A stretch of DNA of 37,204 nucleotides from the NCBI GenBank assembly GCA_003971905.1, contig RSEE01000014.1, positions 930,001-967,204 of the forward strand. The letters are read 5' to 3'. Within the stretch, counting starts at the first letter, position 1; every line of letters begins with the position of its first letter. Of the stretch, positions 7,101 through 26,745 are shown piece after piece. This DNA is from Moniliella sp. 'wahieum'. Taxonomy: Eukaryota. The translations under genes were made by a program, and so were the position numbers. The notes beneath the pieces are model-generated. The model was not told the origin of the DNA. It saw only the letters and a program-made list of their open reading frames with translations, and did not search any database.

Positions 7101-7586
7101 GGCCAGGGATGCTGCGAGGGAGTTTGGGGTTGAGGGTGGGTCGGCCGGTTTGATCGGTTTGGTCGCCATGGCCCGCAGGGGTGTGGGTGGCGTTCGCGGG
7201 TTGTGTAAGATCGTGAATTGATAGTCACTGCCGGTTACTTTTCGTAGGGTGGATCCTGGGTTACCAAGCCAGATACCCTTCTGGTGTGGGGCGAAGTATG
7301 ATGCGATTCCGGTGTTCGACAGGTGTGCTACACTGACGAGATTTCGGCTGAAACGGGGCATGTATAGGCTGTTGGGGAGTTTTATCTCCATTTGGTGTCC
7401 TCCTAAGCATCGGATACGGATTGTGGCCGTGCCTCGTCCTTCCGCCTTTACATGTGTCCCGTTAGCAACCTCTATCTCGTCGTCGCAAGGGGTCATGGAT
7501 GTGAAGACGGATTTGTCTTTCCAAATGGATGGGAATGCCCCACTGTCATATAATGCCCGGATGATTCGCATTTCGCCCCCGAGTTC
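4176..7586 (-). CDS. pol: Element 1 pol (protease, integrase, RT, RNase H); split by apparent frameshifts near 5700 and 5090-5190
   Basis: Protease LYDSGA. Integrase HKRWNH..CPTC, LHVDVVD, RTDNAPE, SNGVAERAIRT. RT RHRARFVAGG, ADVNAAYLNA, LKKSLYGLHQSG, AVHTDDLL. RNase H YTDSDLAGD, AEY, NPADVLTKPL. Confidence 0.95.
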
Positions 7587-8834
7587 CTAGTAGTCAGCTG
7601 TGCCCGCATCAACGTCAATCACTTCAGACTCGGGAGAGCTCGCTCTCTGAGCGACGTGAGCGTTGGCTCGGCCTGGGTTGCGCGGAGGGACAACAGGTTT
7701 ATTAGACGTCGCGCTGCGCCAGGGTTGGTTGGTGCGGTCTTGCCCCTTGGTCTTTGTGTCCGCGAGGTTGTCGTCGCCGGCTTTGCCCCCGCTGGAGTTT
7801 TTTCCCCCGCTGGTGGGTCGTCCCCCGCTGTCGGGTCGAGTCCAAGGCGTTCCTCCGTTGACCGGCTTGCCTCCGTTTCTCTTCCTTTCTCCACCGGGAT
7901 ACGTGGCGGCTGGTATGTCCATCACGGCCTGCCGTAACTTGTCTAGACTCGAGCGCTCTTCACGCTGGCGAATGCTCATGTCGCGTAAGCCGAGTAGGAT
8001 CCCAGTGCGTTCCTGCTCTTCCGTAAGTGGGATGCCCGCTCGCGTCAGGCTTGCACTGATCTCTTCCATGTAGTCGAGGTAGTCTCGACCCGATCGGTTT
8101 CCTTGGTCGGCCGAAAAGTAGCGAATGAGTAGAGGCCCTCTGTTTGCGGTAGGCGTATATCCATACCGCTGACGCAGCATGTTCAGCGTGTCCTGGGTGC
8201 ATGATATTTCGTGGTGGGTGCGGATCGTCCGGAAGAGGGTTGACGGCATGGCTTCCCTAAGAAGGTTGTGCAAGCGTCTGTCGAGGTCCTCGGTGAAGTA
8301 GCGGGAGCTGCGACCATTCTGGACGACGTCGCTTGCGTGGGGGTGGGCATCTGTTATCGCGAAGAGAAATTCGTCTTCCCAAGCGCTGTAGGCGGACGGG
8401 TCTTTGTTCAGATCAGGCCACTTGATATTCTTGGTGGGAGACTCGCGTAGTGATCTGTAAAGGTCGTACTCGGGTCGCGAGGCTGCGCCTGTAGGTGCCC
8501 CCAAAGTTGCGTTGGGTTGAGTTTCCATTTGGTGGATGTTTTGCACCACAAAATTCGTAGCCCGTCGAACCCAGTTTGTCGTGATAGACGTAGGTTCGTC
8601 CTTCCATCCAAGCCACTCGGCTCTGTCGTGTATAGCTCTGTTGATCTTCTCTTTAACGACATCGATGTCGTTCGTCTTCTTGAACCACAGGTGCGCTTCG
8701 GCGCAAAGCATCATGAGTTCCTCGTTGTCGGTGCCAATCGGTGGCGGATCGCGACCGGTTGGTGTCCAGTAATCGCGCTTGTTCACCATTGTGGTGTCGC
8801 TGACCGAGAGATCGGTGTTAGCGTTGGCGCCCAT
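7587..8834 (-). CDS. gag: Element 1 Gag (no CCHC knuckle; basic Gly/Arg-rich C-terminus), ends in TAG in frame with pol
   Basis: Uninterrupted ORF from MGANANTD. Copia-gag-like segments YSAWEDEF, LNMLRQRYG and DYLDYMEEISASLTRAGIPL..ILLGL. Located between the 5' LTR and the protease. Confidence 0.88.
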   Translation of the reverse strand: MGANANTDLSVSDTTMVNKRDYWTPTGRDPPPIGTDNEELMMLCAEAHLWFKKTNDIDVVKEKINRAIHDRAEWLGWKDEPTSITTNWVRRATNFVVQNIHQMETQPNATLGAPTGAASRPEYDLYRSLRESPTKNIKWPDLNKDPSAYSAWEDEFLFAITDAHPHASDVVQNGRSSRYFTEDLDRRLHNLLREAMPSTLFRTIRTHHEISCTQDTLNMLRQRYGYTPTANRGPLLIRYFSADQGNRSGRDYLDYMEEISASLTRAGIPLTEEQERTGILLGLRDMSIRQREERSSLDKLRQAVMDIPAATYPGGERKRNGGKPVNGGTPWTRPDSGGRPTSGGKNSSGGKAGDDNLADTKTKGQDRTNQPWRSATSNKPVVPPRNPGRANAHVAQRASSPESEVIDVDAGTADY

Positions 8835-9085: not shown

Positions 9086-11350
9086 ATGGCTTCTGCCGCC
9101 GCGCCAGACCCCGTGCCGCCGGCCCAGGGCAGCCCCGCCGCGCCTCCGCCCGTCACCCTCCAAGGCCAGGAGGACCCCCACAACTGGAGCGAGCGCAAGC
9201 GCTGGGGCATGGTCATCCTCGTCTCCCTCATGGGCTTCATATCCCCCCTCGGCTCCTCCATCACCGTCGCCGGATCCAAGTCGCTGGAACAGACCATGGA
9301 CCTGGCCAGCCGTCTGCTGGCGACCGTGCCCGTTTCCACCTACCGCTCGGTACGCGTCTCCCTGCCTTGTTGTGCTTCGTCTGCCGAGCCGCAGCGCGTA
9401 CTGACCTGGAAGCGCTTCTCCGTCTAGGCCTCGCCTTTGGCCCCTTTGTCTTTGCCCCGGCCTCGGAGCTGATTGGCCGCCGGCCAGTTTACGTGGCAAC
9501 GGCGGTTATCTTTGTAGCCTTCAACGCCAGCACCGCTGCCGCGCCCAACTACCCCGGCCTTGTTATTCTCCGTTTCCTCGCGGGCATATTTGGTTCGACA
9601 GGACCTACACTAGGCTCGGGTGTGATTGGTGATATGTTCCAGCCCCGCTTCCGGGGCCGTGCGGTCGCCATCTACGGATTGGGACCATTACTGGGACCCG
9701 TGGTGGGGAACCTGATCAGTGGGTACATTAGCCAAGCCACCCATTCGTTCCGCTGGCTGTTGTGGACCTTGACAATTGTATGTTGGCCCTGTCCCATTCC
9801 ATTGCGCATGGCGTACTCACCCTACCATCGTCTCCTTTCAGATCTCCGGGGCCGTGATGGGGGCGATTGTGCTTTTCCTAGAGGAGACGTATGCATTTGT
9901 CCTGATTGAGCGCAAGCGGCAGCGCCTTGCTGGCTACGACGTCTCGTGGCAGGCCCGTGCTCAGCATTCGGTCCATACCATGCTTCGCCCCTGGATTTGG
10001 CACCCATCGCCCGCAGCCCAACAAAAGTTCCGCTTGGCCATGACCCGGCCCTTCCGATTACTGTTTTGCAACCCCATCTGTGCCATCTTCAGTCTGTATC
10101 AAGGCTTTGTCTATGGTGTCATGTTTATCTTTCTCACTCAGCACCCCTTGCTCTTCCAACAGCGCAGTGACGTTTCCTCCTCCGGCTCGGGCGCCACCAG
10201 TACTGGCTCCGTGTCGTCCAACCATCTTGCCTCCGTCACGCGACGACAGACCCCGTCTTCCTCATCTCAGGCTTCCGCTCACCATGACCGCATTGGTTCC
10301 GACCACACCGATCCCAACTTGCATCGTCTTCCCTCCTATGGCTGGTCCATGGGTAATGCTGGTCTGAGCTATCTCGGTTTGGGACTCGGTTTCTTGATTG
10401 CTATGCTGCTCAATGCGCTCCTTTCCGATCTCCTCTACCGTCGCCTCGTCGCCACAGACGGAGAACTGCGATGGGCCCTGTTAAACCCTCGGATCGGGGT
10501 AGATCAACTGGCCCAAGAGACCGAGCTGCGTGCTGCTACCCACGAACTGTTGCAGGGCAGTCGGCCCGCCTCGGTTCGTTCGCAGCAGCCCCCTCCTCCT
10601 TCCTGTCCTCCTCCCCCATGTCCTCCTCCCTCATGTCCTCCTCCCTCATGTCCCCCTCCCTCCTGTCCTCCTCCCTCCTGTGCCCCTCCCCCTCCGTCTC
10701 TCACCACACGGGTGGGGGTCGCACATGCCGTTCCCCCGCCATATGGGGCGTCCTCTCCCCCCTCGCACTCGGATACGATCCAGGCCGCTGAATCTGAGCC
10801 TATTCCCAATGCCGAATCTGGCATGAACCCCATCGACGTGCCCGAGAAGAGTGACGATCCTCCCCTATCGGAAAAGGGGAGTGATGTGGAGAAGCAAGGA
10901 GCCGTGATGCCGCTTGCGACGCCGCCTGCACCTACGCCCCGCAAGGGTCGGCCTGAATACCGTCTTCCGTTCTGTCTGCTGGGCATGCTGATTCTTCCCT
11001 GTGGGCTTCTGCTCTTTGGCTGGAGTGCCTCGGCCAAGACGCATTGGTCTGTGCCGCTAGTCGGCTCGCTCGTCACGGGCGCCGGGCTAATCCTGTGCTT
11101 CCAGACGATTCTCATGTACTTGGTCGATGCGTTTGTGCCCTACAGCGCATCGGCCACCGCATGCTCTGTCCTGACCCGCTCCGTGCTCGCAGCGGGCTTC
11201 CCCTTGTTTGCCGAGTACCTCTATGCGGCCCTGGGCTATGGCGGCGGGTCGTCTCTGTTGGCGGGCATTGCGCTGTTGGGCGCGCCCGTGCCGGTGATTA
11301 TGTTTGTTTATGGGCCGCGGCTTCGTACCCGGTTTGCGTTTACGGGCTAG
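9086..11350 (+). CDS. MFS drug:H+ antiporter, DHA1 family (TPO1/FLR1/MDR1-like); introns ~9350-9427 and 9778-9841
   Basis: EDPHNWS, GLAFGPFVFAPASELIGRRPVY, ILRFLAGIFGS, GVIGDMF..RFRGRA, GPLLGPVVG, FLEETYA, RPFRLLF, PEYRL, YLVDAF..YSASA, RSVLAAGFPLF. Introns have GT..AG ends and CTGAC/CTCAC branch sites. Confidence 0.94.
10589..10696 (+). repeat. 15-bp coding minisatellite encoding (PPPSC)n in the MFS transporter
   Basis: About 6-7 copies of cctcctccctc(a/c)tgt; protein PPPPSCPPPPCPPPSCPPPSCPPPSCPPPSCAPPPPS. Confidence 0.9.
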
Positions 11351-12023: not shown

Positions 12024-13086
12024 ATGAACTATGTATTTGTATGGGCATGTCTCCTCGTTGCCCCTGGCCTTCCAGTACACTCAGCTGGGCCTGCGGCCTA
12101 TCACCATTCACCAGCTCAGGCATGCCGAGCCAAGCAGCGTCGACATGCCAATGCTGATTGACGACAAGGAGGTCAGAATGTATGCTGGCCTGTTGACGTG
12201 CTTCTTCTCATTGTTCTCTCACTCTGACACAGTTCTTCTTCTATCCTCTCTCTCTCGCCTTTTTCTAGGCTACCTTGTTGGCAGGGGTGCCGAGGCCCAA
12301 GGCGGCGAGCTGTTTAGTTCGTTTGTCGTTGATGATGGCACAGGATCGATCGAGTGTAAACTATGGAGCATCAAGACCACTCCACTGAGCGTCGGGTTGA
12401 ATGAATATGCATGTGTGCGTGGCGTGGTCAAGCAGTTCCAAGGCACCGCCACCATCTCGGCTTCCGCAGTGCCCATGGTTGCCGACCTCCAAGCCATCTG
12501 GGCCCATCTCGACCTGGCCATACACAGCGACGTATCCATGGGAGAGCACAACCCCTCCACCTCTGCCTCTGCGTCTTCCTTTGCAGTGCCTCTGCCTCTG
12601 CCTCCGCCCACGCCCTCACTCCCGCATTGCGCGTATCCAAAGCGCTGCAGCACCTCGCCCCGGAGAATCCCAAGGGCGTGTTGGTCGCCCAGATTCAAAA
12701 ACGCGTGTGTCCACACTCGGTATGAACGATGTCGCGTACGTTCTGTCCTCTTCCCCTTCCTTTGCTTGGGTGTTGGACGAAGGACTGACGCTGCGTGTGT
12801 TGTTTTTTTGCTGAGGTGCAGCAATATCTTTACCGATCTGGCCGAAGCAGGTTCGGCGTACAGTGTCCGGGATGCCGACGACAACGACGTCTGCTTAAGT
12901 TCCTCTGGCGCTGCAACTTTAACCTCCCCCATATCCGCCACACCTTCTCCCCCCCCCCCTTCCACTTTCGCGTCCAACCTTTTTCCCGCATTCCCGCGCT
13001 TGTCGCCTGCTGATGCCTCTCAACTTGTTGTTCTGGCCAGCGCAGCACTCCATGCACTCCCACCAGTTCTCTGGCCCCCATCATAG
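12024..13086 (+). CDS. Divergent RPA32/Rfa2-like ssDNA-binding protein (OB fold + winged helix), multi-exon
   Basis: LRPITIHQL resembles RPA32 LRPVTIKQL. VDDGTGSIECKLW and YACVRGVVKQFQG fit the OB fold. LTPALRVSKALQHLAPENPKGVLVAQIQKRV and IFTDLAEAGSAYSV fit the C-terminal winged helix. GT..AG introns near 12035-12075, 12171-12268 and 12736-12820. Exact ends uncertain. Confidence 0.8.
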
Positions 13087-13618
13087 TGAGTGGTAGTACC
13101 CTGCCTCCTTTTCGTCATTTATCGCCTACACCCATCGCTCCTGGCCGTGACTAGTGACTGCGCTAGTAATCGTGATCCCTTCAAACAAGAGGGGGGGCGA
13201 GGCGACCGGTAGTGCTATGGGGGCTCTATACGTACCAGCGTAGCATGCAGTTGTGCCAAGACCCAGGGGGACCAAAGGTCGGGAGGCGCGTGCTGCACGT
13301 GACGCGTGATGGCCGATGCAGATGCGGCAGGAGAGAAAAGCGGCGGATGCGTTTCAAACAAAGTGTGGGGGGGTGTATATACGGCGGTGAAAAAGGCACT
13401 GCACTACCCGACCGCTGCCGTCTGCCCCGCCTTTCGGGGAGTACCGGTTCCCGGGCTATGAATGGCAGGCTTGTAAGTATATTGGCTGCAATCTCTATTA
13501 CCTTCCCTCGGCCGGTAGTGCGCGGGCGCTGGACCTTGGCTGGTTCGCCACGCCCACCTGACGGACATCGACGAGTATACACGATACTAAGCCCCCTTAC
13601 CGGCCCACCACACAATTC

Positions 13619-13964
13619 TGCTAGACTGCAGCTGGGAAACGCTATGGGCAGCACGAGAGATAAGCTTCAAGGCGTGCAAGAAGGCAGGGCAGTTAGCCAC
13701 AAGTCCTTCAAGCAAGCTCGATTGCGAGGAGGACAACACAAGAACAGGGAAAGCAGAGGCGCACCTTCAAGGCGTGCAAGAAGGCAGGGCAGTTAGCCAC
13801 AAGTCCTTCAAGCAAGCTGAAGGGAAGAAGATAAGAGTCAAGCAAGCAAGTCGGAACAGACAAAGGGGTGGCGTTGGCCACGCAAGGTTCGAATCACCCG
13901 AACCAGCGAGCATCACCGATCCATTGGAGAGAGTGCAGGTGAACCCTAGCACTACCCTCTAGCA
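13619..13964 (-). repeat. Element 2 3' LTR (contains a 54-bp internal duplication at 13665-13718 and 13765-13818)
   Basis: 7-bp perfect inverted termini; minus-strand PPT GAGGGGGGC at 13965-13973. Confidence 0.96.
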
Positions 13965-14222
13965 GCCCCCCTCGGTGAGCTCGCCAGGCCAAAGGTGGTG
14001 AGGGCCAAAGAACATCGAGACGAAAGGGAGAAATGATTCACGGCCGCGAGCGCCAAACATGTATTTGTTCTGGTGAGCAGGAACTGGTAAAACAAACGCA
14101 TCGTGGATGCGAGAAAAAAAAAACCCAGTCCCGCTGCGATTTAATTTGTGTAGATGAGAAAGCCAAGACGAAAGAAAAGAAACCGGTCTTGAGAGAAAGA
14201 AGGGCTCCGGAGCCCAACGTGG

Positions 14223-17200
14223 TTAGCTGCCACCGCCACCACGCAGACCAAGTTGCTCCGCCCTAGCGTCGACTGCGCGGCCCGAGATCGTCTTGGTGAA
14301 CATGTCAGCCGGATTGTGCACCCCGCCACTTGCGCCAAGAGGAGCACGTTGGCGGCAATGAGTTCCCTCAGAAAGTGGTGCCGCAAATCGATGTGCTTCG
14401 AGCGCTTGTGAATGATGTGGCCCTCGGCCAGCTTGCGGGCGCCGAGAGAGTCAGTGAAGATGGTGGGCACCACCTCCTCATGTGGTAAGATTTCCCGGAG
14501 CAACAGCCTGAGCCACACTGCTTCCTTGGCCGCATGAGCCAGGGCAACATATTCCGCTTCGGTGCTCGAGAGTGTGACCATGAGTTGCTGCCGCGACGAC
14601 CAAGAAACCAAATTGCCAGCCACAAAGAAAACATACCCAGAGGTCGAACGCCGGTTCGCCGGGCACCCCGCCCAGTCGGCATCGCTAAACCCATTTAGCA
14701 ACGGCGCATCAGCGTGAAAGGAGAAATGGAGACCTTTTCCCGGTGAGCGACGAAGAAAGCGTAGGACCTGAAACGCGGCATTGAAGTGATCTGGTCCCGG
14801 GTTAGCCATGAAGCGACCACACACGCCCACAGCTTGAGCAATGTCAGGGCGGGTGTTAAGGGCAGCGAAGCCAAGGTGACCAATAAGCCCCGCATACTGA
14901 CGACGATCCGCATCACTGGCCTGGCCCGAGAAAGGTAGTAGATGCGCCGGGCGAGCAGGTCGAGGGCTGGGAGGTGAGGTTAGCTTTTCCCCATAATGCG
15001 CAAGCACACCCTCCACGTATCCCCGCTGGCTGAGGAAGCAGGTACGGGCTGCTTGATCATACTCCACCTTCACCCTAACAAGTAGCTGACAGGGCCGCCA
15101 TCAGTCACGGGCAATTGCTTGGCAAATTGGCGCTTGGCCTCTTGCAAGCGCGTCAAGTCGGCACAGGCCCAAACAGTATCATCCACAAAGCAGGCCACCA
15201 GAACCAAAGCACTGCCCTGGCCGCGAAGATATACACACGGTTCCCCTTGCAACCGGTGGTAGCCGAGACGTAAGAACACCCCATCCAGATGGTCGTGGAA
15301 AAGCTTGCCCCCCTGGCGTAGGCCGTAAACACCCTTGAGCAACTTCCAGCACTTGCCCTCCGTGTCAGGACCCCTGAAGCCAGGCGGGATGGCCATGTAA
15401 ACCTCAGTGTCAACTGCCGCATGTAAGTATGCCGCCTCCACATCCATTTGATGGACATGCAGGCCAAAACGACACGCCAAGGAGAGCAAGACCCGGATGG
15501 TCTCACTCCTGACAACGGGAGCAAAAACCTCGTCAAAGTTCACTCCTTGAACCTGGGTCCGTCCATCGGCAACGAGACGGGCTTTGTGCTTGGTAACCTG
15601 ACGAGTGTCATCCAGCTTCGCTTTAAACACCCACTGGCACCGGAGAACAGGAACATTGGCAGGCCGATCCACGAGCTCAAAAACCGCGAGTTCCCGCATC
15701 TTGTTCACCTCCTTAACCATGGCAGCATGCCAGACGGGCCAGTCTGGTCGCTGGCATGCCTCTTGAAACGACAGGGGTTCAAGCAGCTCGCCATCGGCGC
15801 TACGCTCCTCTTGTACGCGAAAGGCCACGCCCTGTGCTGTGAGCGCTAGTGTGTCCTGCACCACGGCAACTGCATGCAGGGCCTGGGTCGCGTAGGCTCC
15901 GCCGGTGGCCACCGGACCATGCAACATCCCGGCAGCAAAATGGGCAAGGCCAAGAGTGACCTGCGCAGCAGCAGCCCCCTGGGACAGGAGCCAGGTCCAC
16001 AGCATCAAGTTCGACTGCCAGCTCCACAGCAAGAGCCGATCGAGCACGCTTCCTGGGCGCGTCAACGACTGCTGGTGGATCAGCTTCACGCTCACGCTTG
16101 GTCACGTCGAGCATGCGCCGGAACTCCGCGCGGGCGATGTCCCTCCCGGGTGTTGTAGGGGACGGTGGGGTGGTAAGGCCCGGCGGTCCGGGTGGGTGGA
16201 CGCCGCGGAGGAAAGGAGGGGAATGTCACCAGCAATACCATCTTCACCCACTGCTGGGATAGGGTTGAGCAAGGGGATCAAGGGGAATATCACGTACATA
16301 ATCGTCCTGGAGGCGCGGCTGCTCCTCCAGCCGACCCGACTCTCCCTCAGCAAAATGCACATCGTAAACTGTCACGATACGGTCCAACACCTCGACCCAA
16401 ACACGATGACCTTTGACTTGGCCCGGCAGGTCACTGTAACCCAGGTACACCCCTCGAACGGCACGTGGAGCGAGGTATTTGCCGCTGAGTTCACTAGCTT
16501 GTGTCCAGGCACGTCGATTCCCACCATGCAGCACAACCCAAGCAGTGCAACCAACACCCGCAGAGCAGACAGAGTGGGGGGTTGGCCCGTCCACAGTTCA
16601 TACGGCGTCTTCCAGGCATGCGCTTTGCTGGCGAGGCGGTTGTGAATGTATCCGGCGTGCGTCGCAGCATAGGGCCAAAACCGCCCCGGCAACTGGGCGT
16701 GGTGCATGAGACAACGGGACAACTTCTCAATCTCTTGGTTCATTCGCTCTGCGACGGCGTTCCCTGTGGATTCTTGAGTAGGAGAAGCTGTCAAAAGGCA
16801 ACCTGAACGAGCAGCCCATGTCTTGACCTCATTAGTCCATAATTCGCCTTGGTCCACACGTAATTCTTTTGGATGTTTTTCTGTTTCGCGATGAATTAAG
16901 GTAGCCCACTGAATGAGGCAGGGTGCAGCACTGGCCTTGTCCTTCAACGGCCAGACCCAGGTCATGCCACTGTAATTGTCCACCACGACAAGAATGTAGT
17001 GCCAAGGTACCTTGTGCTGCAAAGCATCTGGCTCATTCCAAGGGCCCACCACATCAGCTGACACCAGGTCGAGGCGGGCCAAGATGAGACGAGAATCATT
17101 CCCCCGCCGGGCTCGCGACTTGGCAGTACGGCAAACATCGCAGGAAGAAAACTCAGGAAACGAAGGCGGCCAAGATCCCCCTTTGCTGGCCGTAGACGTG

Positions 17201-17930
17201 TGTTTCACGGCCTCAGCGCCGGCATGGCCAAGCCGAAGGTGCCACAACCAAGCTGACGCGCGCGTCAAGTCGGGGGCTGGAGTCTCAGCTACAGGCCGAG
17301 GAAAGAGTTTGTCCCGCAACTGGTCATCAGGATCATTCAAAGAGTCATCCTCAGTCTCCGAGAAATAGGGAACGCTAATAACTGCACCTTCCACCTGGCA
17401 GTCATCCGTGCACACTACCATTTCCGCTCTGGGGTAGGTGCCCTTCAGTGGAACCCCGAGGGAAGTGCCATTCTTGGTGAAAAACACCACCTCATGGTCC
17501 CGAAATAGCGTACTCCCACCCGTGGCTGCCACTCCTTGGGTACTGAGGAGATTAGTAATGAGGTCAGGTACCAGCATAACCCCATTGAAGTGAAGCGCCT
17601 CCCACTTGCGCTGGGATGGATCATATTGTAGGAGGCGTAAGGTGCCATTCACCCCAGCGACCGGCAGTTTCTGCCCCCCTGCAGTGACTACCGAGGTGGG
17701 ACGGGAGGGAGGCACGAAGTTTTTCGCCAAGCTTGCATCATTGACAAGGCGATGGGAGGCTCCGCTGTCAAAGATAAATTCAGCCGAGCGAGGTGTGGAG
17801 CAAGGTGGAGATGGGATGTTGTTAGAAGAAGAAGGGGGGGAAGAAGGGGCGCGCGTCCTGGGCGAGTGGTAAACAATGCGCTCAACAAGTCCTCTGCGAG
17901 GATAATGAGCGCCTCACCCCGCGCGCACCC
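14223..17930 (-). CDS. pol: Element 2 copy A pol (PR-IN-RT-RH), with several apparent frameshifts
   Basis: FIFDSGASH; WHLRLGH..CDVC; SADVVGP; RVDQGE; NAVAERMNQ; KHKARLVADG; HQMDVEAAYL; KGVYGLRQGG; CFVDDTV; FSDADWAG; SSTEAEY; KHIDLRHHFLRE. Confidence 0.95.
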
Positions 17931-19872
17931 CTATTCGATATCATCAAACCCCGCGGCAGGCTGCCCATCCTCCTCTGAGACGGAGAGATCCATTACCGTT
18001 AAGCCGTGCGCCAAGGCTTGAAGCACACGCGCAACAGCATGCTGCTGTGGGGGCGCACGGTTGGTATTCGTGTTCCGTCCTGCCCCAGGGAGGGTGCGAT
18101 TCCATCCTGACGTACCACGGGTAGAAATGCGGTTGTCCTGACGCGGCGCCGGGCAGTTGGCAGCGATATGTCCAGGCTGGCGGCAATTCCAGCAGACAGC
18201 CGCAACCCCCATCGCTCGTAGCTGCGCTGCCAGAGACATGTCTGCGTTCCCAAGCAGTCCCGTGGTCCCCGAATTAACGGGAGGGGTAGAGACATCAACA
18301 GCCAAAGATTCAACCGTAGGTACCGAGATGGACGCAATCCGGTTAGATTCCATGACGAAGTTGGCCCGGGCCAACGACTGCAAGTCCCCCAAGACAGAAT
18401 TGACGTGTGCCACGGTCACACGCTGTCCGGGAGGTAGCCCCGCGAAAATCAGCGGCCGATACGAATCACCACGCCGGAAAAGGGCTTCCAAACTGGACAT
18501 CACACGTGCAGGGTCCCAGGTGGAGTACCCCAAGAGGGTCAGAACTTGGATGGAATCGAGCCAGCGCGTCAGGGCCTTAGAAGCCGGTTCTGCATTGGGA
18601 TCCCATTCCGTCTGGTGCACCGACAGCTGTAGTTCAGAGACGCTGGGCGTAGAAGAAGACGTACTTCCGCGAACAAGCACGACAAGAAGTCCGGAACCGA
18701 GTCAAGAATCCCGGGAGACGTTGTGGTCGCGAGGCGCGAAATGTAGGACGCGAGGGCAGGCGACACCAGCGTCATCAGTTGCGCAACGATCTGAGAGTGC
18801 ACCCCCGGCGGCACCTCCATTGTTCCGGCCAAGATCGAAGCAAAGTCGTGATAAATGATGGCCAAACGAGTACGGAGGCCCTGCAGCCAGCGAAGAACAG
18901 CCAACGGGTCATTTTGCTCGGGACCATGCACCAGAGGTGTCAGAGGCGAGGAAGCAAAAGCACGCGTCATACGCTTCGCCAATGTCATAACATCGAAATT
19001 CATGTGTCCCTGGACTAGACGCGGTGCATCCACCCACTTGGGCTGCTCCTCGATAGTCACCGTGCGAGCAGACGGGGCCCGCTCGCTGATACGCTCCACA
19101 GAAGGGACGGTCACCGACGGCAAAGCAGCCGACGGGTCATGAGCAAAAGCCATACCACTGTCAGTCGGAACAGAACCTTTCGGGGTGCCCAACAGGTCAA
19201 TACGTGCACTGACTCAGTACTGACTCGAGCGGTCAGAAGCTGAAGTTCATCGTCAGATTCGGTAGTTGGAGCTGGGTCCTCTGGGTCGAGGAGCATGTCG
19301 CGCATGGCACGACGCTTCTGAGCAACACGATGTTTGGAAGCCTTATTGTCCTCGTACAGTTTCCAAGCATTACGCACTGCCTTGAGATGGCGAAAGATTG
19401 CCTTCTGCAAGTCCTCAAAGGTGGAGAAGCGATGAGACTTGGTATAAAAGACGTAGGCAACATAGAAGTCGGTCGGTGTGTGAGCAAGAAGTTTTCGCCA
19501 CCATGGCCCTTATTGTAGTCGGTAATGATATCAGCCACAATAGAGTCCTTGTCTGCCACTGCAGAACCAGGGGCCGGGGAGGCTATGCCCTTCCCCGGGA
19601 TACCCCAGCGGCGAATGGTAGGAATGACGTCCTGGATGAAATCGGCAGCGACATCCACGTCAACGTCCCACAGGATGGTGTTCAGTCCAGACCAAGCACC
19701 AATCGTGTGCTTGATGCGAAAAGCCGGCCATTTCGCTGTCTTGCCAGGAGCCATCCCGTCTTGAGAGTTGGGGTTAAACTCGCCACGACGAACATACGCT
19801 TCCACAATGTCATCAGGCGAGGAAACCGGGTGCGCAGAATGCGCAGAGGCAGAGAGAAGATAAGGGCGACAT
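17931..19872 (-). CDS. gag: Element 2 copy A Gag (~650 codons, CCHC zinc knuckle, long N-terminal extension); apparent frameshifts
   Basis: ATG lies in the PBS (GGTTATG). CWNCRQPGHIAANC knuckle. Ends GFDDIE-TAG at 17931-17933. Confidence 0.85.
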
Positions 19873-19876
19873 AACC

Positions 19877-20221
19877 TGCTAGACTGCAGCTGGGAAACGC
19901 TATGGGCAGCACGAGAGATAAGCTTCAAGGCGTGCAAGAAGGCAGGGCAGTTAGCCACAAGTCCTTCAAGCAAGCTCGATTGCGGAGGACAACACAAGAA
20001 CAGGGAAAGCAGAGGCGCACCTTCAAGGCGTGCAAGAAGCAGGGCAGTTAGCCACAAGTCCTTCAAGCAAGCTGAAGGGAAGAAGATAAGAGTCAAGCAA
20101 GCAAGTCGGAACAGACAAAGGGGTGGGCGTGGCCACGCAAGGTTCGAATCACCCGAACACCAGCGAGCATCACCGATCCATTGGAGAGAGTGCAGGTGAA
20201 CCCTAGCACTACCCTCTAGCA
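19877..20221 (-). repeat. Element 2 shared central LTR
   Basis: Flanked by the PBS of copy A on one side and the PPT of copy B on the other; no TSD. Confidence 0.96.
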
Positions 20222-23400: not shown

Positions 23401-24169
23401 GGAAACGAAGGCGGCCAAGATCCCCCTTTGCTGGCCGTAGACGTGTGTTTCACGGCCTCAGCGCCGGCATGGCCAAGCCGAAGGTGCCACAACCAAGCTG
23501 ACGCGCGCGTCAAGTCGGGGGCTGGAGTCTCAGCTACAGGCCGAGGAAAGAGTTTGTCCCGCAACTGGTCATCAGGATCATTCAAGAGTCATCCTCAGTC
23601 TCCGAGAGAATAGGGAACGCTAATACTGCACCTTCCACCTGGCAGTCATCCGTGCACACTACCATTTCCGCTCTGGGGTAGGTGCCCTTCAGTGGAACCC
23701 CGAGGGAAGTGCCATTCTTGGTGAAAAACACCACTCATGGTCCCGAAATAGCGTACTCCACCCCGTGGCTGCCACTCCGGGTACTGAGGAGATGTAGGAT
23801 GTAATGGTCAGGTACCAGCATAACCCCAATATTGAAGGAAGCGCTCCCACTTGCGCTGGGATGGATCATATTGTAGGAGGCGCGTTAAGGTGCCATTCCC
23901 CAGCGACCGGCAGTTTCTGCCCCCCTGCAGTGACTACCGAGGTGGGACGGGAGGGAGGCACGAAGTTTTTCGCCAAGCTTGCATCATTGACAAGGCGATG
24001 GGAGGCTCCGCTGTCAAAGATAAATTCAGCCGAGCAGGTGTGAGCAAGGTGGAGATGGGATGTTGTTAGAAGAAAGAAGGGGGGGAAAGAAGGGGGGCGC
24101 GCGGCGAGTGGTAAACAATGCGCTCAACAAGTCCTCTGCGAGGATAATGAGCGCCTCCCCGCGCGCACC
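20478..24169 (-). CDS. pol: Element 2 copy B pol (many small indels relative to copy A)
   Basis: Same motifs as copy A in fragmented frames, e.g. NPADMFTK, FSDADWAG, CFVDD, WHLRLGH. Confidence 0.9.
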
Positions 24170-26101
24170 CTATTCGATATCATCAAACCCCGCGGCAGGC
24201 TGCCCATCTCCTCTGAGACGGAGAGATCCATTACCGTTAAGACGTGCGCCAAGGCTTGAAGCACACGCGCAACAGCATGCTGCGTGGGGGCGCACGGTTG
24301 GTATTCGTGTTCCGTCCTGCCCCAGGGAGGGTGCGATTCCATCCTGACGTACCACGGGTAGAAATGCGGTTGTCCTGAGCGGGCCGGGCAGTTGGCAGCG
24401 ATATGTCAGGGCTGGCGGCAATTCCAGCAGACAGCCGCAACCCCCATCGCTCGTAGCTGCTGCCGCTGCCAGAGACATGTCTGCGTTCCCAAGCAGTCCC
24501 GTGGTCCCCGAATTAACGGGAGGGGTAGAGACATCAACAGCCAAAGATTCAACCGTAGGTACCGAGAGGACGCAATCGGTTAGATTCCATGACGAAGTTG
24601 GCCCGGGCCAACGACTGCAAGTCCCCAAGACAGAAATGACGTGTGCCACGGTCACACGCTGTCCGGGAGGTAGCCCCGCGAAAATCAGCGGCCGATACGA
24701 ATCACCACGCCGGAAAAGGGCTTCCAAACTGGATCACACGTGCAGGGTCCAGGTGGAGTACCCCAAGAGGGTCAGAACTTGGATGGATCGAGCCAGCGCG
24801 TCAGGGCCTTAGAAGCCGGTTCTGCATTGGGATCCCATTCCGTCTGGGCACCGACAGCTTGTAGTTCAGAGACGCTGGGCGTAGAAAGAAAGACGTACTT
24901 CCGCGAACAAGCACGACAAGAAGTCCGGAACCGAGTCAAGAATCCCGGGAGACGTTGTGGTCGCGAGGCGCGAAATGTAGGACGCGAGGGCAGGCGACAC
25001 CAGCGTCATCAGTTGCGCAACGATCTGAGAGTGCACCCCCGGCGGCACCTCCATTGTTCCGGCCAAGATCGAAGCAAAGTCGTGATAAATGATGGCCAAA
25101 CGAGTACGGAGGCCCTGCAGCCAGCGAAGAACAGCCAACGGGTCATTTTGCTCGGGACCATGCACCAGAGGTGTCAGAGGCGAGGAAGCAAAAGCACGCG
25201 TCATACGCTTCGCCAATGTCATAACATCGAAATTCATGTGTCCCTGGACTAGACGCGGTGCATCCACCCACTTGGGCTGCTCCTCGATAGTCACCGTGCG
25301 AGCAGACGGGGCCCGCTCGCTGATACGCTCCACAGAAGGGACGGTCACCGACGGCAAAGCAGCCGACGGGTCATGAGCAAAAGCCATACCACTGTCAGTC
25401 GGAACAGAACCTTTCGGGGTGCCCAACAGGTCAATACGGTGCACTGACTCAGTACTGACTCGAGCGGTCAGAAGCTGAAGTTCATCGTCAGATTCGGTAG
25501 TTGGAGCTGGGTCCTCTGGGTCGAGGAGCATGTCGCGCATGGCACGACGCTTCTGAGCAACACGATGTTTGGAAGCCTTATTGTCCTCGTACAGTTTCCA
25601 AGCATTACGCACTGCCTTGAGATGGCGAAAGATTGCCTTCTGCAAGTCCTCAAAGGTGGAGAAGCGATGAGACTTGGTATAAAAGACGTAGGCAACATAG
25701 AAGTCGGTCGGTGTGAGCAAGAAGTTTTCGCCACCATGGCCCTTATTGTAGTCGGTAATGATATCAGCCACAATAGAGTCCTTGTCTGCCACTGCAGAAC
25801 CAGGGGCCGGGGAGGCTATGCCCTTCCCCGGGATACCCCAGCGGCGAATGGTAGGAATGACGTCCTGGATGAAATCGGCAGCGACATCCACGTCAACGTC
25901 CCACAGGATGGTGTTCAGTCCAGACCAAGCACCAATCGTGTGCTTGATGCGAAAAGCCGGCCATTTCGCTGTCTTGCCAGGAGCCATCCCGTCTTGAGAG
26001 TTGGGGTTAAACTCGCCACGACGAACATACGCTTCCACAATGTCATCAGGCGAGGAAACCGGGTGCGCAGAATGCGCAGAGGCAGAAGATAAGGGCGACA
26101 T
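24170..26101 (-). CDS. gag: Element 2 copy B Gag
   Basis: 411-aa ORF MSPLSSASAH... from 26101, continuing in shifted frames to QPAAGFDDIE-TAG at 24170-24172. Confidence 0.85.
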
Positions 26102-26105: not shown

Positions 26106-26448
26106 TGCTAGACTGCAGCTGGGAAACGCTATGGGCAGCACGAGAGATAAGCTTCAAGGCGTGCAAGAAGGCAGGGCAGTTAGCCACAAGTCCTTCAAGC
26201 AAGCTCGATTGCGGAGGACAACACAAGAACAGGGAAAGCAGAGGCGCACCTTCAAGGCGTGCAAGAAGGCAGGGCAGTTAGCCACAAGTCCTTCAAGCAA
26301 GCTGAAGGGAAGAAGATAAGAGTCAAGCAAGCAAGTCGGAACAGACAAAGGGGTGGCGTTGGCCACGCAAGGTTCGAATCACCCGAACCAGCGAGCATCA
26401 CCGATCCATTGGAGAGATGCAGGTGAACCCTAGCACTACCCTCTAGCA
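26106..26448 (-). repeat. Element 2 5' LTR
   Basis: TGCTAGA...TCTAGCA followed by TSD AATTC. Confidence 0.96.
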
Positions 26449-26580
26449 AATTCAAGCCCCATGCGCGACCCGGTGGCAGGGGCCTGTGCCGGCCTGCACG
26501 GGCGCTGGTGAAAAATTAATATTTTGCTAGATAACCACATCACCCCAAAAATGAGTAAATTTTACGAACTTACCTTGGCA

Positions 26581-26745
26581 CTTTGGCCACATGAGGTTAA
26601 GCGCTTTGGCCCAAGAGATCAAGCGCTTTGGCCACATGAGATCAAGCGCTTTGACACCTGAGATCAAGCGCTTTGGCCACATGCGTTCAATGGCTTTGGC
26701 CACATGCGCTCAAGCGCTTAGCCCAAATGCGCCCAAACGCTTAGC
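26581..26745. repeat. Degenerate 22-23 bp minisatellite (~7 units, consensus approximately ATCAAGCGCTTTGGCCACATGAG)
   Basis: Units read directly; most contain the palindrome AAGCGCTT and/or TGGCCA. Confidence 0.85.

Follow-up and report, generated by a model that had tools for sequence, protein, structure and literature searches.

The 37,204-nt stretch analysed here (positions 930,001 to 967,204 of contig RSEE01000014.1, forward strand; hereafter the window) originates from the assembly of Moniliella sp. 'wahieum' (GCA_003971905.1; 69.5 Mb in 223 contigs, searched as a whole) and harbors on its minus strand two different copia elements; this study is concerned with the second one, element 2, and with the UAG codon at its gag/pol boundary. 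Element 2, a copia long terminal repeat (LTR) retrotransposon, forms a dimer of two tandem copies (LTR-copy B-LTR-copy A-LTR, 26448 to 13619): it exhibits the Ty1/copia order protease, integrase, reverse transcriptase (RT), RNase H with the integrase ahead of an RVT_2-type RT, as well as TG...CA LTRs, a 5-bp target duplication, a primer-binding site and a purine tract. The 3' LTR (13619..13964, TG...CA) is preceded by the purine tract, the middle LTR (19877..20221) is common to copies A and B and is adjoined by the primer-binding site (approximately 19876-19864), and the 5' LTR of copy B (26106..26448) differs from the 3' LTR by three gaps and no mismatch, which marks the insertion as recent; since a single 5-bp duplication flanks the dimer (26449-26453 and 13614-13618), the latter represents one insertion. 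Every LTR contains a 54-nt internal repeat, 100 nt apart, and the first ATG of gag is located within the primer-binding site (19864-19876, minus strand), 4 nt past the LTR. The gag region of copy A (17934..19872, minus strand), broken by indels as assembled, encodes a CCHC knuckle (PF00098) near its end; the pol region (14141..17930, minus strand), with several frame breaks as assembled, encodes protease (Asp codon at 17769-17767), GAG-pre-integrase, integrase, RT and an RNase H-like end (PF22936, PF13976, PF00665, PF07727; the RNase H-like end was assigned from motifs and had no Pfam match). The alignment of copies A and B over 6645 columns contains 9 mismatches and 113 gap positions: the assembly is rich in small indels.

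In both copies gag ends with GFDDIE-TAG (17933-17931 and 24172-24170, minus strand), as the sequence-only reading of the window had reported, and the stop codon is followed by G; the hexamer of copy A, UAGGGG (stop at 17931..17933), fits the type III readthrough pattern UAGGGV, and the junction of copy B (24013..24172, minus strand) has the same UAG-G. The distance from the stop to the protease Asp codon is 161 nt in copy A, again as stated before, and 154 nt in copy B, whose deviation by indels (seven in its junction relative to the copy at C59) was likewise correctly noted. A search of the genome for this junction yielded seven matches, one incomplete and six complete. Among the latter, the copy at C59 alone is in frame (162 nt from stop to Asp): its gag of 646 open codons is closed by a single stop, behind which 221 codons remain open into the protease. 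Relative to this copy the five others carry 14 indels, 12 of which are deletions and nearly all of which lie at different sites (two copies both lose bases near +70 to +76), a scatter typical of this indel-prone assembly. Copy A as assembled leaves the gag frame in a pyrimidine run right after the predicted hairpin (17835..17845, minus strand) by a one-base difference from the C59 copy that is absent from the other four. The alternative frames behind the stop close early, the +1 frame at 15 codons and the +2 frame at 4 codons; a +1 shift at the stop was rejected on these grounds. A sister family of element 2 (at C11 and C54; 46% RT-RNase H identity), whose hexamer is UAGGGA, resembles element 2 in the gag frame over the first 26 codons after the stop, and its C54 copy is in frame as assembled (126 nt). 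Public contigs (from one run, sharing 16% of sequence words) match pieces of elements 1 and 2 with five small indels relative to copy A; none of the pieces among the matches listed spans the junction. Taken from the sequences, gag and pol of element 2 very probably lie in a common frame that is interrupted by a single UAG.

The most stable fold predicted for the region is an 85-nt stem-loop that begins at the stop codon (17846..17931, minus strand), composed of a lower helix (17931-17922/17855-17846), an upper basal helix (17919-17913/17866-17860), an interior helix (17912-17906/17884-17878) and an inner hairpin (17902-17898/17894-17890). Its predicted energy over 146 nt is −54 kcal/mol (z −4.0; equalled in 0 of 200 shuffles). 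The structured region had previously been drawn as 17875-17936, which stops short of the 3' arm reaching 17846: this 64-nt stretch is unremarkable when folded alone (z −0.5), and the alternative long hairpin proposed within it is indeed contained in the predicted fold. Only 2 of 300 synonymous recodings of element 2 are as stable, and each of the two sister copies is more stable than all 300 of its own recodings; the stability therefore exceeds what the encoded peptide imposes. The long-range pairing was matched by 5 and 50 of 1000 recodings. For both sister copies, too, a long stem-loop is predicted, which shares its foot with that of element 2 but has two small hairpins as its interior. Positions identical in element 2 and the sister are concentrated around the stop (18/21 nt) and in the 3' arm (14/21), compared with 20/48 in the loop and 26/57 upstream. 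Between the two sister copies, whose gag sequences are 89% alike, 3 of 83 hairpin positions have changed (two one-sided changes that keep the pair, one in a loop), versus 9 of 60 positions upstream and 9 of 90 in the protease. A search of Rfam returned no match at E up to 1.

An H-type pseudoknot of the kind found in murine leukaemia virus (MuLV) had been proposed as the signal. Its four strands are located where claimed (17878..17922, minus strand): GCGGGG (17922-17917) and CCUCGC (17901-17896) form stem 1, GCGCUCA (17912-17906) and UGAGCGC (17884-17878) form stem 2. Stem 1 begins exactly 8 nt past the stop, and the prediction returned this pairing as the best H-type fold with a stem 1 starting 7-11 nt past the stop (equalled in 1 of 125 other element windows; given stem 2, an equally good stem 1 in 397 of 20000 loop shuffles, i.e. 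2%): it is uncommon, not unique. A search for the stem motifs found both in four of the seven copies; in one of these four, the first arm lies elsewhere within the 20 nt searched. After a ribosome has unwound the foot of the long stem, the pseudoknot might form as a minor fold and act as the stimulator, in a MuLV-like switch; of the folds of Moloney murine leukaemia virus (MoMLV), the one of lower stability may be active (PMC13517186). However, the nested fold is the more stable one: with the first 8 nt held open, as by a ribosome at the stop, it is predicted at −30.3 kcal/mol including loop costs, compared with −28.5 kcal/mol for the sum of both pseudoknot stems before any loop or knot penalty. 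As a knot penalty amounts to approximately 7-10 kcal/mol, the long stem-loop would prevail by roughly 10 kcal/mol. Stem 2 is common to both folds, whereas both strands of stem 1 have other partners in the stem-loop, the first pairing about 50 nt further on; the 8-nt spacer (17930-17923; five purines out of eight), located as reported before, is paired in the predicted fold as well, a pairing that a ribosome positioned at the stop would undo. Neither sister copy permits a pseudoknot starting at +7 to +11, while both keep the base of the stem-loop, and the loops of 4, 4 and 11 nt drawn for element 2 differ from those of MoMLV (1, 0 and 18). In consequence, the MuLV-like combination of spacer and pseudoknot found no support; the pseudoknot may be a possible minor fold that is not conserved, its role as the active stimulator is unlikely, and on present evidence element 2 does not appear to belong to the gammaretroviral pseudoknot family.

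The UAG junction had been noted in two different copia families; it turned out to be common to twelve. These were collected by a protease search (115 matches) and an RT search (the best 150 scored of 204 candidates), with one to several copies fetched per score class. In all of them TAG lies 12-54 codons ahead of the protease Asp and G comes next, although the lineages are as far apart as 20-38% RT identity. The tabulated context of eleven families comprises TAG-G (11/11), a purine at +2 (11/11), C at +6 (9), G at +7 (9) and G at +9 (10), and the stop form of a further family, f76, is also TAG-G; the sequence UAG GAA CUC G(C/G)G is common to five families in three lineages at 30-36% RT identity. 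A census pattern that left the stop position open gave 81 matches, 80 of which are TAG (57 element 1, 20 f70, 2 f40, 1 f130; the remaining one is unrelated). Element 1, the other copia element of the window, has the junction UAG GAA CUC GGG (7545..7589, minus strand), in frame at 39 nt from the protease Asp and with no stable fold; 30 of its 30 best-matching loci are in frame. The same holds as assembled for f70 (8/8), f80 (5/5), f40 (2/2), f89 (2/3), the f76 stop form (6/6), f136 (1/1) and f130 (1/1). The listed type III hexamers (UAGGGV, UAGGUA or UAGGAU) are found in element 2, its sister and altogether 5 of the 11 families. Hairpins begin at +6 to +9 in f80, f89, f136, f76, f130 and f41; in the recoding control of f80, f89, f136, f130 and f41, f80 alone surpasses its recodings. 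Element 1, f40, f70 and f103 have no such hairpin, and for the first three no stable fold behind the stop was predicted. Stop codon, context, an in-frame layout in the other families and in single copies of the element 2 lineage, and a conserved pairing potential are thus features of the sequences themselves, and the amber context common to many families together with its natural stop-less variants is the stronger result, the pseudoknot the weak part.

Stop-less in-frame variants arose in two families. In f76 (29 copies, i.e. 36 loci minus 4 of other families, 2 without protease motif and 1 duplicate), the place of the stop is occupied by TAG in 6 copies, by TCG in 3 and by AGG in 2, the sense codons keeping the frame, and 18 copies have an in-frame deletion over it. 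This deletion form (L076-L079, L107, L108, L151-L160, L165, L166) outnumbers the stop form 18 to 6 and would produce Gag-Pol only, unless regulated otherwise or helped in trans. A single-ORF (open reading frame) sister of f80 (L105/L123, G000 C28) lacks about 27 nt that include both stop and hairpin. In two gypsy families of the same genome, too, the stop that closes gag precedes a G; pol lies in the +1 frame, and hairpins come directly behind the stop: AAC TAG G in two of two complete copies (L225 and L227 at G000 C154 and C37; 121 nt to the protease Asp) and GTC TGA G in one copy (L224, C127); these junctions are candidate +1 shifts at a stop codon.

In our interpretation, translational readthrough at a type III-like UAG-G, in element 2 helped by a stem-loop, is the probable mode of pol expression, albeit with considerable room for doubt. 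A single RNA would contain gag and pol in the same frame with UAG between them, which presumes that the true frame of element 2 is that of the C59 copy; most ribosomes would halt at the UAG and release Gag, a few would decode it with an ordinary near-cognate tRNA to give Gag-Pol, and the rate of readthrough would set the ratio of coat to enzyme. The signal may consist of two layers. One is the short context common to the copia families of this genome (UAG, G, purine, C-G-(C/G)-G at +6 to +9); the other, present in element 2 and several further families, is a GC-rich stem that begins 6-12 nt past the stop and would be positioned at the mRNA entrance of the ribosome. In element 2 this stem is presumably the long stem-loop rather than a pseudoknot, and it would have to form in the RNA and to stimulate the passing ribosomes. 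Amber readthrough as proposed in the sequence-only reading hence holds as the most probable mechanism as far as one frame, a single UAG and a type III-like UAG-G are concerned.

Several findings weigh against this interpretation. Five of the six complete element 2 junctions (161, 161, 159, 160 and 154 nt) and one of the two sister copies (C11; 139 nt, broken in a C-rich run) are out of frame as assembled, as are the single copies of f41 and f103, and 5 of 14 element 1 loci from the protease search are broken near the junction. The hexamers UAGGAA and UAGGAC of 6 of the 11 tabulated families are outside the listed type III hexamers. With regard to structure, the hairpins of f89, f136, f130 and f41 do not surpass their recodings (22-55 of 300 as stable), and the commonest families are equalled by theirs still more often (element 1 277/300, f40 289/300, f70 88/300). 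Of the 16 basal pairs in the register of element 2, 10 show no change, 5 cannot form in the sister and 1 falls on a gap; the upper helix of the sister is re-formed one base out of register, and a column count across the three sequences available revealed no two-sided compensatory change. As 18 of 29 f76 copies carry the in-frame deletion over the stop and have spread nevertheless, the stop is not needed in cis in that family. Furthermore, the similar-looking junction of Tca2 gave no readthrough in Saccharomyces cerevisiae (PMC2194720).

The best of the remaining alternatives, although improbable, is that UAG|G represents a 3' splice acceptor, used in a minority RNA in which a donor further upstream in gag is spliced to pol and the stop is removed. 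TAG followed by G fits YAG|G in every family, a CTGAC motif lies 7 nt before the end of TAG in element 1 and f70, splicing would account for the stop never being TGA or TAA, and it was considered for Tca2 (PMC2194720). The host introns, however, look different: in four putative ones read by hand (the frame check through the first failed) the branch A is located 22-41 nt from the acceptor and pyrimidines make up 59-94%, and a branch closer than 11 nt occurs in only 2 of 34 pattern-defined candidate introns. The junctions lack the combination of a branch 20-40 nt upstream and a pyrimidine tract: pyrimidines amount to 41% in element 2, whose only candidate branch is a weak TTGAT, and no branch-like word is present within 40 nt in 5 of 11 families. 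Moreover, conservation is found behind the stop (to +9, and in the stem) and not before it.

Slightly less probable still is separate production of Pol, by an internal promoter, re-initiation or a non-AUG start past the stop. The Tca2 junction has a weak promoter (PMC2194720), and a Met codon precedes the protease Asp in element 1 (codon 6) and f130 (codon 16); but there is no in-frame Met between stop and Asp in f40, f70, f80, f89 and f136, nor in element 2, where the Asp is codon 55 and a Met appears first at codon 119. Separate synthesis would leave the kept frame and the sense-codon variants unexplained, and a free Pol would need another route into the particle.

There is little to recommend a host factor that renders UAG leaky (a suppressor tRNA, a weak release factor or a recoded UAG) and is exploited by the elements, although it would suit the occurrence of UAG-G in lineages at 20-38% RT identity and the stop-G ends of the two gypsy families. 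The pol frames of 1139-1301 codons are free of internal TAG, and in two of them TAG serves as the terminal stop; the eRF1 motifs are ordinary (GTS, NIKS, YLCDNKF); a CUA-anticodon pattern gave one match, which is tRNA-Arg(TCT), and CUA was found in 0 of 50 tRNA loci scanned, in a search that remained incomplete with 63 of 2133 candidates scored. Among the named matches, the host eRF1 is nearest to that of Tilletiaria anomala (88%), followed by Violaceomyces and Malassezia (82-84%), a kinship that points to a smut-related basidiomycete as the host. The eRF1 gene is present at two near-identical loci (L222, L223), with two partial matches on further contigs, a duplication that suggests a diploid or hybrid assembly. 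Approximately 41 dispersed tRNA-Ala(AGC) genes of equal score (L177-L199 and elsewhere) were by far the most frequent tRNA among the 63 scored.

Even less is to be expected of A-to-I editing that would turn UAG into a Trp codon in some transcripts. The fungal preference for U before the edited A and for purines 1 and 3 nt after it (PMC11156358) agrees with 11 of 11 contexts, and editing would account for the strict use of UAG; yet it is reported absent from basidiomycetes and prefers hairpin loops (PMC11156358), whereas the stop is located here at the foot of a stem, and edited RNA would be copied into DNA, with TGG found in 0 of 80 copies. Hardly credible, finally, is a pol of element 2 that is truly out of frame (owing to a frameshift site past the hairpin or to dead copies, the in-frame copy being an error): most copies are out of frame as assembled, and copy A and the C11 sister both break in a C-rich run past the hairpin, but the offsets disagree and the breaks lie at different sites, the +1 and +2 frames stay open for no more than 15 and 4 codons, 26 codons past the stop are alike to the sister in the gag frame, and the mismatch-free LTRs indicate recent activity.

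Readthrough of a gag stop is a rare, already known strategy, and the proposed mechanism for element 2 can be compared with four groups of known systems. With MoMLV it shares gag-UAG-pol in one frame, UAG GGR at the start and a structure close behind the stop (PMC13517186, PMC3159437), the UAGGGA of the sister being identical to the MoMLV hexamer; it differs in being a copia retrotransposon rather than a retrovirus, with a predicted 85-nt stem-loop and a spacer that is predicted to be paired, the pseudoknot being drawable in element 2 and absent from the sister copies. Type III contexts generally need downstream structure (PMC13517186), and stem-loops 7-12 nt past the stop are frequent at readthrough sites (PMC3159437). 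The extended 3' stem-loop elements of alphaviruses, furoviruses and Drosophila kelch (Firth et al. 2011, PMC3159437) have a GC-rich basal stem of 10-14 bp at 7-12 nt past the stop, with conserved arms and a variable loop; the prediction for element 2 likewise places a basal stem 7-12 nt after the stop, with a stability beyond coding constraint. Those elements, in contrast, mostly have UGA-C, whereas UAG-G is present here, the stem of element 2 reaches back to the stop, and two-sided compensatory changes were not observed. Element 2 would accordingly function in the manner of a type III site that carries an extended stem-loop.

In-frame stops between gag and pol are known from Tca2 (PMC2194720), VdLTRE5 (PMC3441728) and Tj1/Tosmo (PMC10085805), all of them UGA. 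Tca2 of Candida albicans and VdLTRE5 of Verticillium dahliae are fungal copia elements as well, in which a stop, with an unproven mode of bypass, interrupts the common frame of gag and pol (PMC2194720, PMC3441728); they are single families of ascomycetes, as opposed to twelve families of a basidiomycete with UAG throughout. Tj1, Tosmo1-3 and Tcry1 of fission yeasts share the in-frame stop, a short context conserved across families and a frequent GAA before the stop, which in Tj1 is required for transposition; unlike the present elements they belong to gypsy and have a UGA-CU (type II) context, and no downstream structure is described in the available text (PMC10085805). The accessible parts of PMC5445492 and PMC11889832 are silent on stops. 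A basidiomycete copia with a UAG gag-pol junction was not encountered in the literature searched, which left most subscription papers outside its scope; compilations of readthrough sites may list more.

No close relatives of element 2 were found outside this genome (four matches at 25-31%; best single-stretch RT 38-40%). Scans of metagenomes by protein and by junction pattern revealed no relatives, and an Atlas search with the RT gave generic RT clusters only. Two Logan proteins are members of families f70 and f76; one begins just ahead of the protease, which, known from the protein alone, is consistent with an upstream stop. An RT-RNase H tree of 44 sequences (13 family rows and 31 library proteins picked by likeness; f41, having no RT, was excluded) neither supports nor rejects one clade (approximately unbiased (AU) test with 5000 replicates and a fast search: p 0.35 for a single clade and 0.52 with element 2 placed apart). 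Tentatively, and with the balance of probability rather against it, most copia lineages of this host, however distant, may have arrived by convergence or exchange at a single compact signal for amber readthrough (UAG-G-purine-N3-C-G-(C/G)-G, a stem being optional), adapted to termination in the host and unlike the three listed viral classes; the GAA CUC form may need no structure, and the stop-less derivatives may spread on Gag borrowed from stop-bearing kin.

In the surroundings of the junctions, two host genes lie on the plus strand between elements 1 and 2: an MFS transporter gene with introns, a TAG stop and a 15-nt tandem repeat at 10577-10711 (9209-11350), and a small OB-fold gene (12025-13090). 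An array of 22-23-nt repeats (26578-26735) is located just beyond the 5' LTR of copy B.

A UAG followed by G is usually a firm stop, and how fungal copia elements pass an in-frame gag stop has been a puzzle since the Tca2 junction failed in a yeast reporter. The families described here provide a natural test series within one genome: one stop codon and one short context, accompanied by a long stem-loop in some families, by a short hairpin in others and by neither in the rest, together with natural variants whose stop is replaced or deleted. For annotation, such elements resemble broken copies of single-ORF elements. If the context works, it would represent a new eukaryotic UAG readthrough signal.

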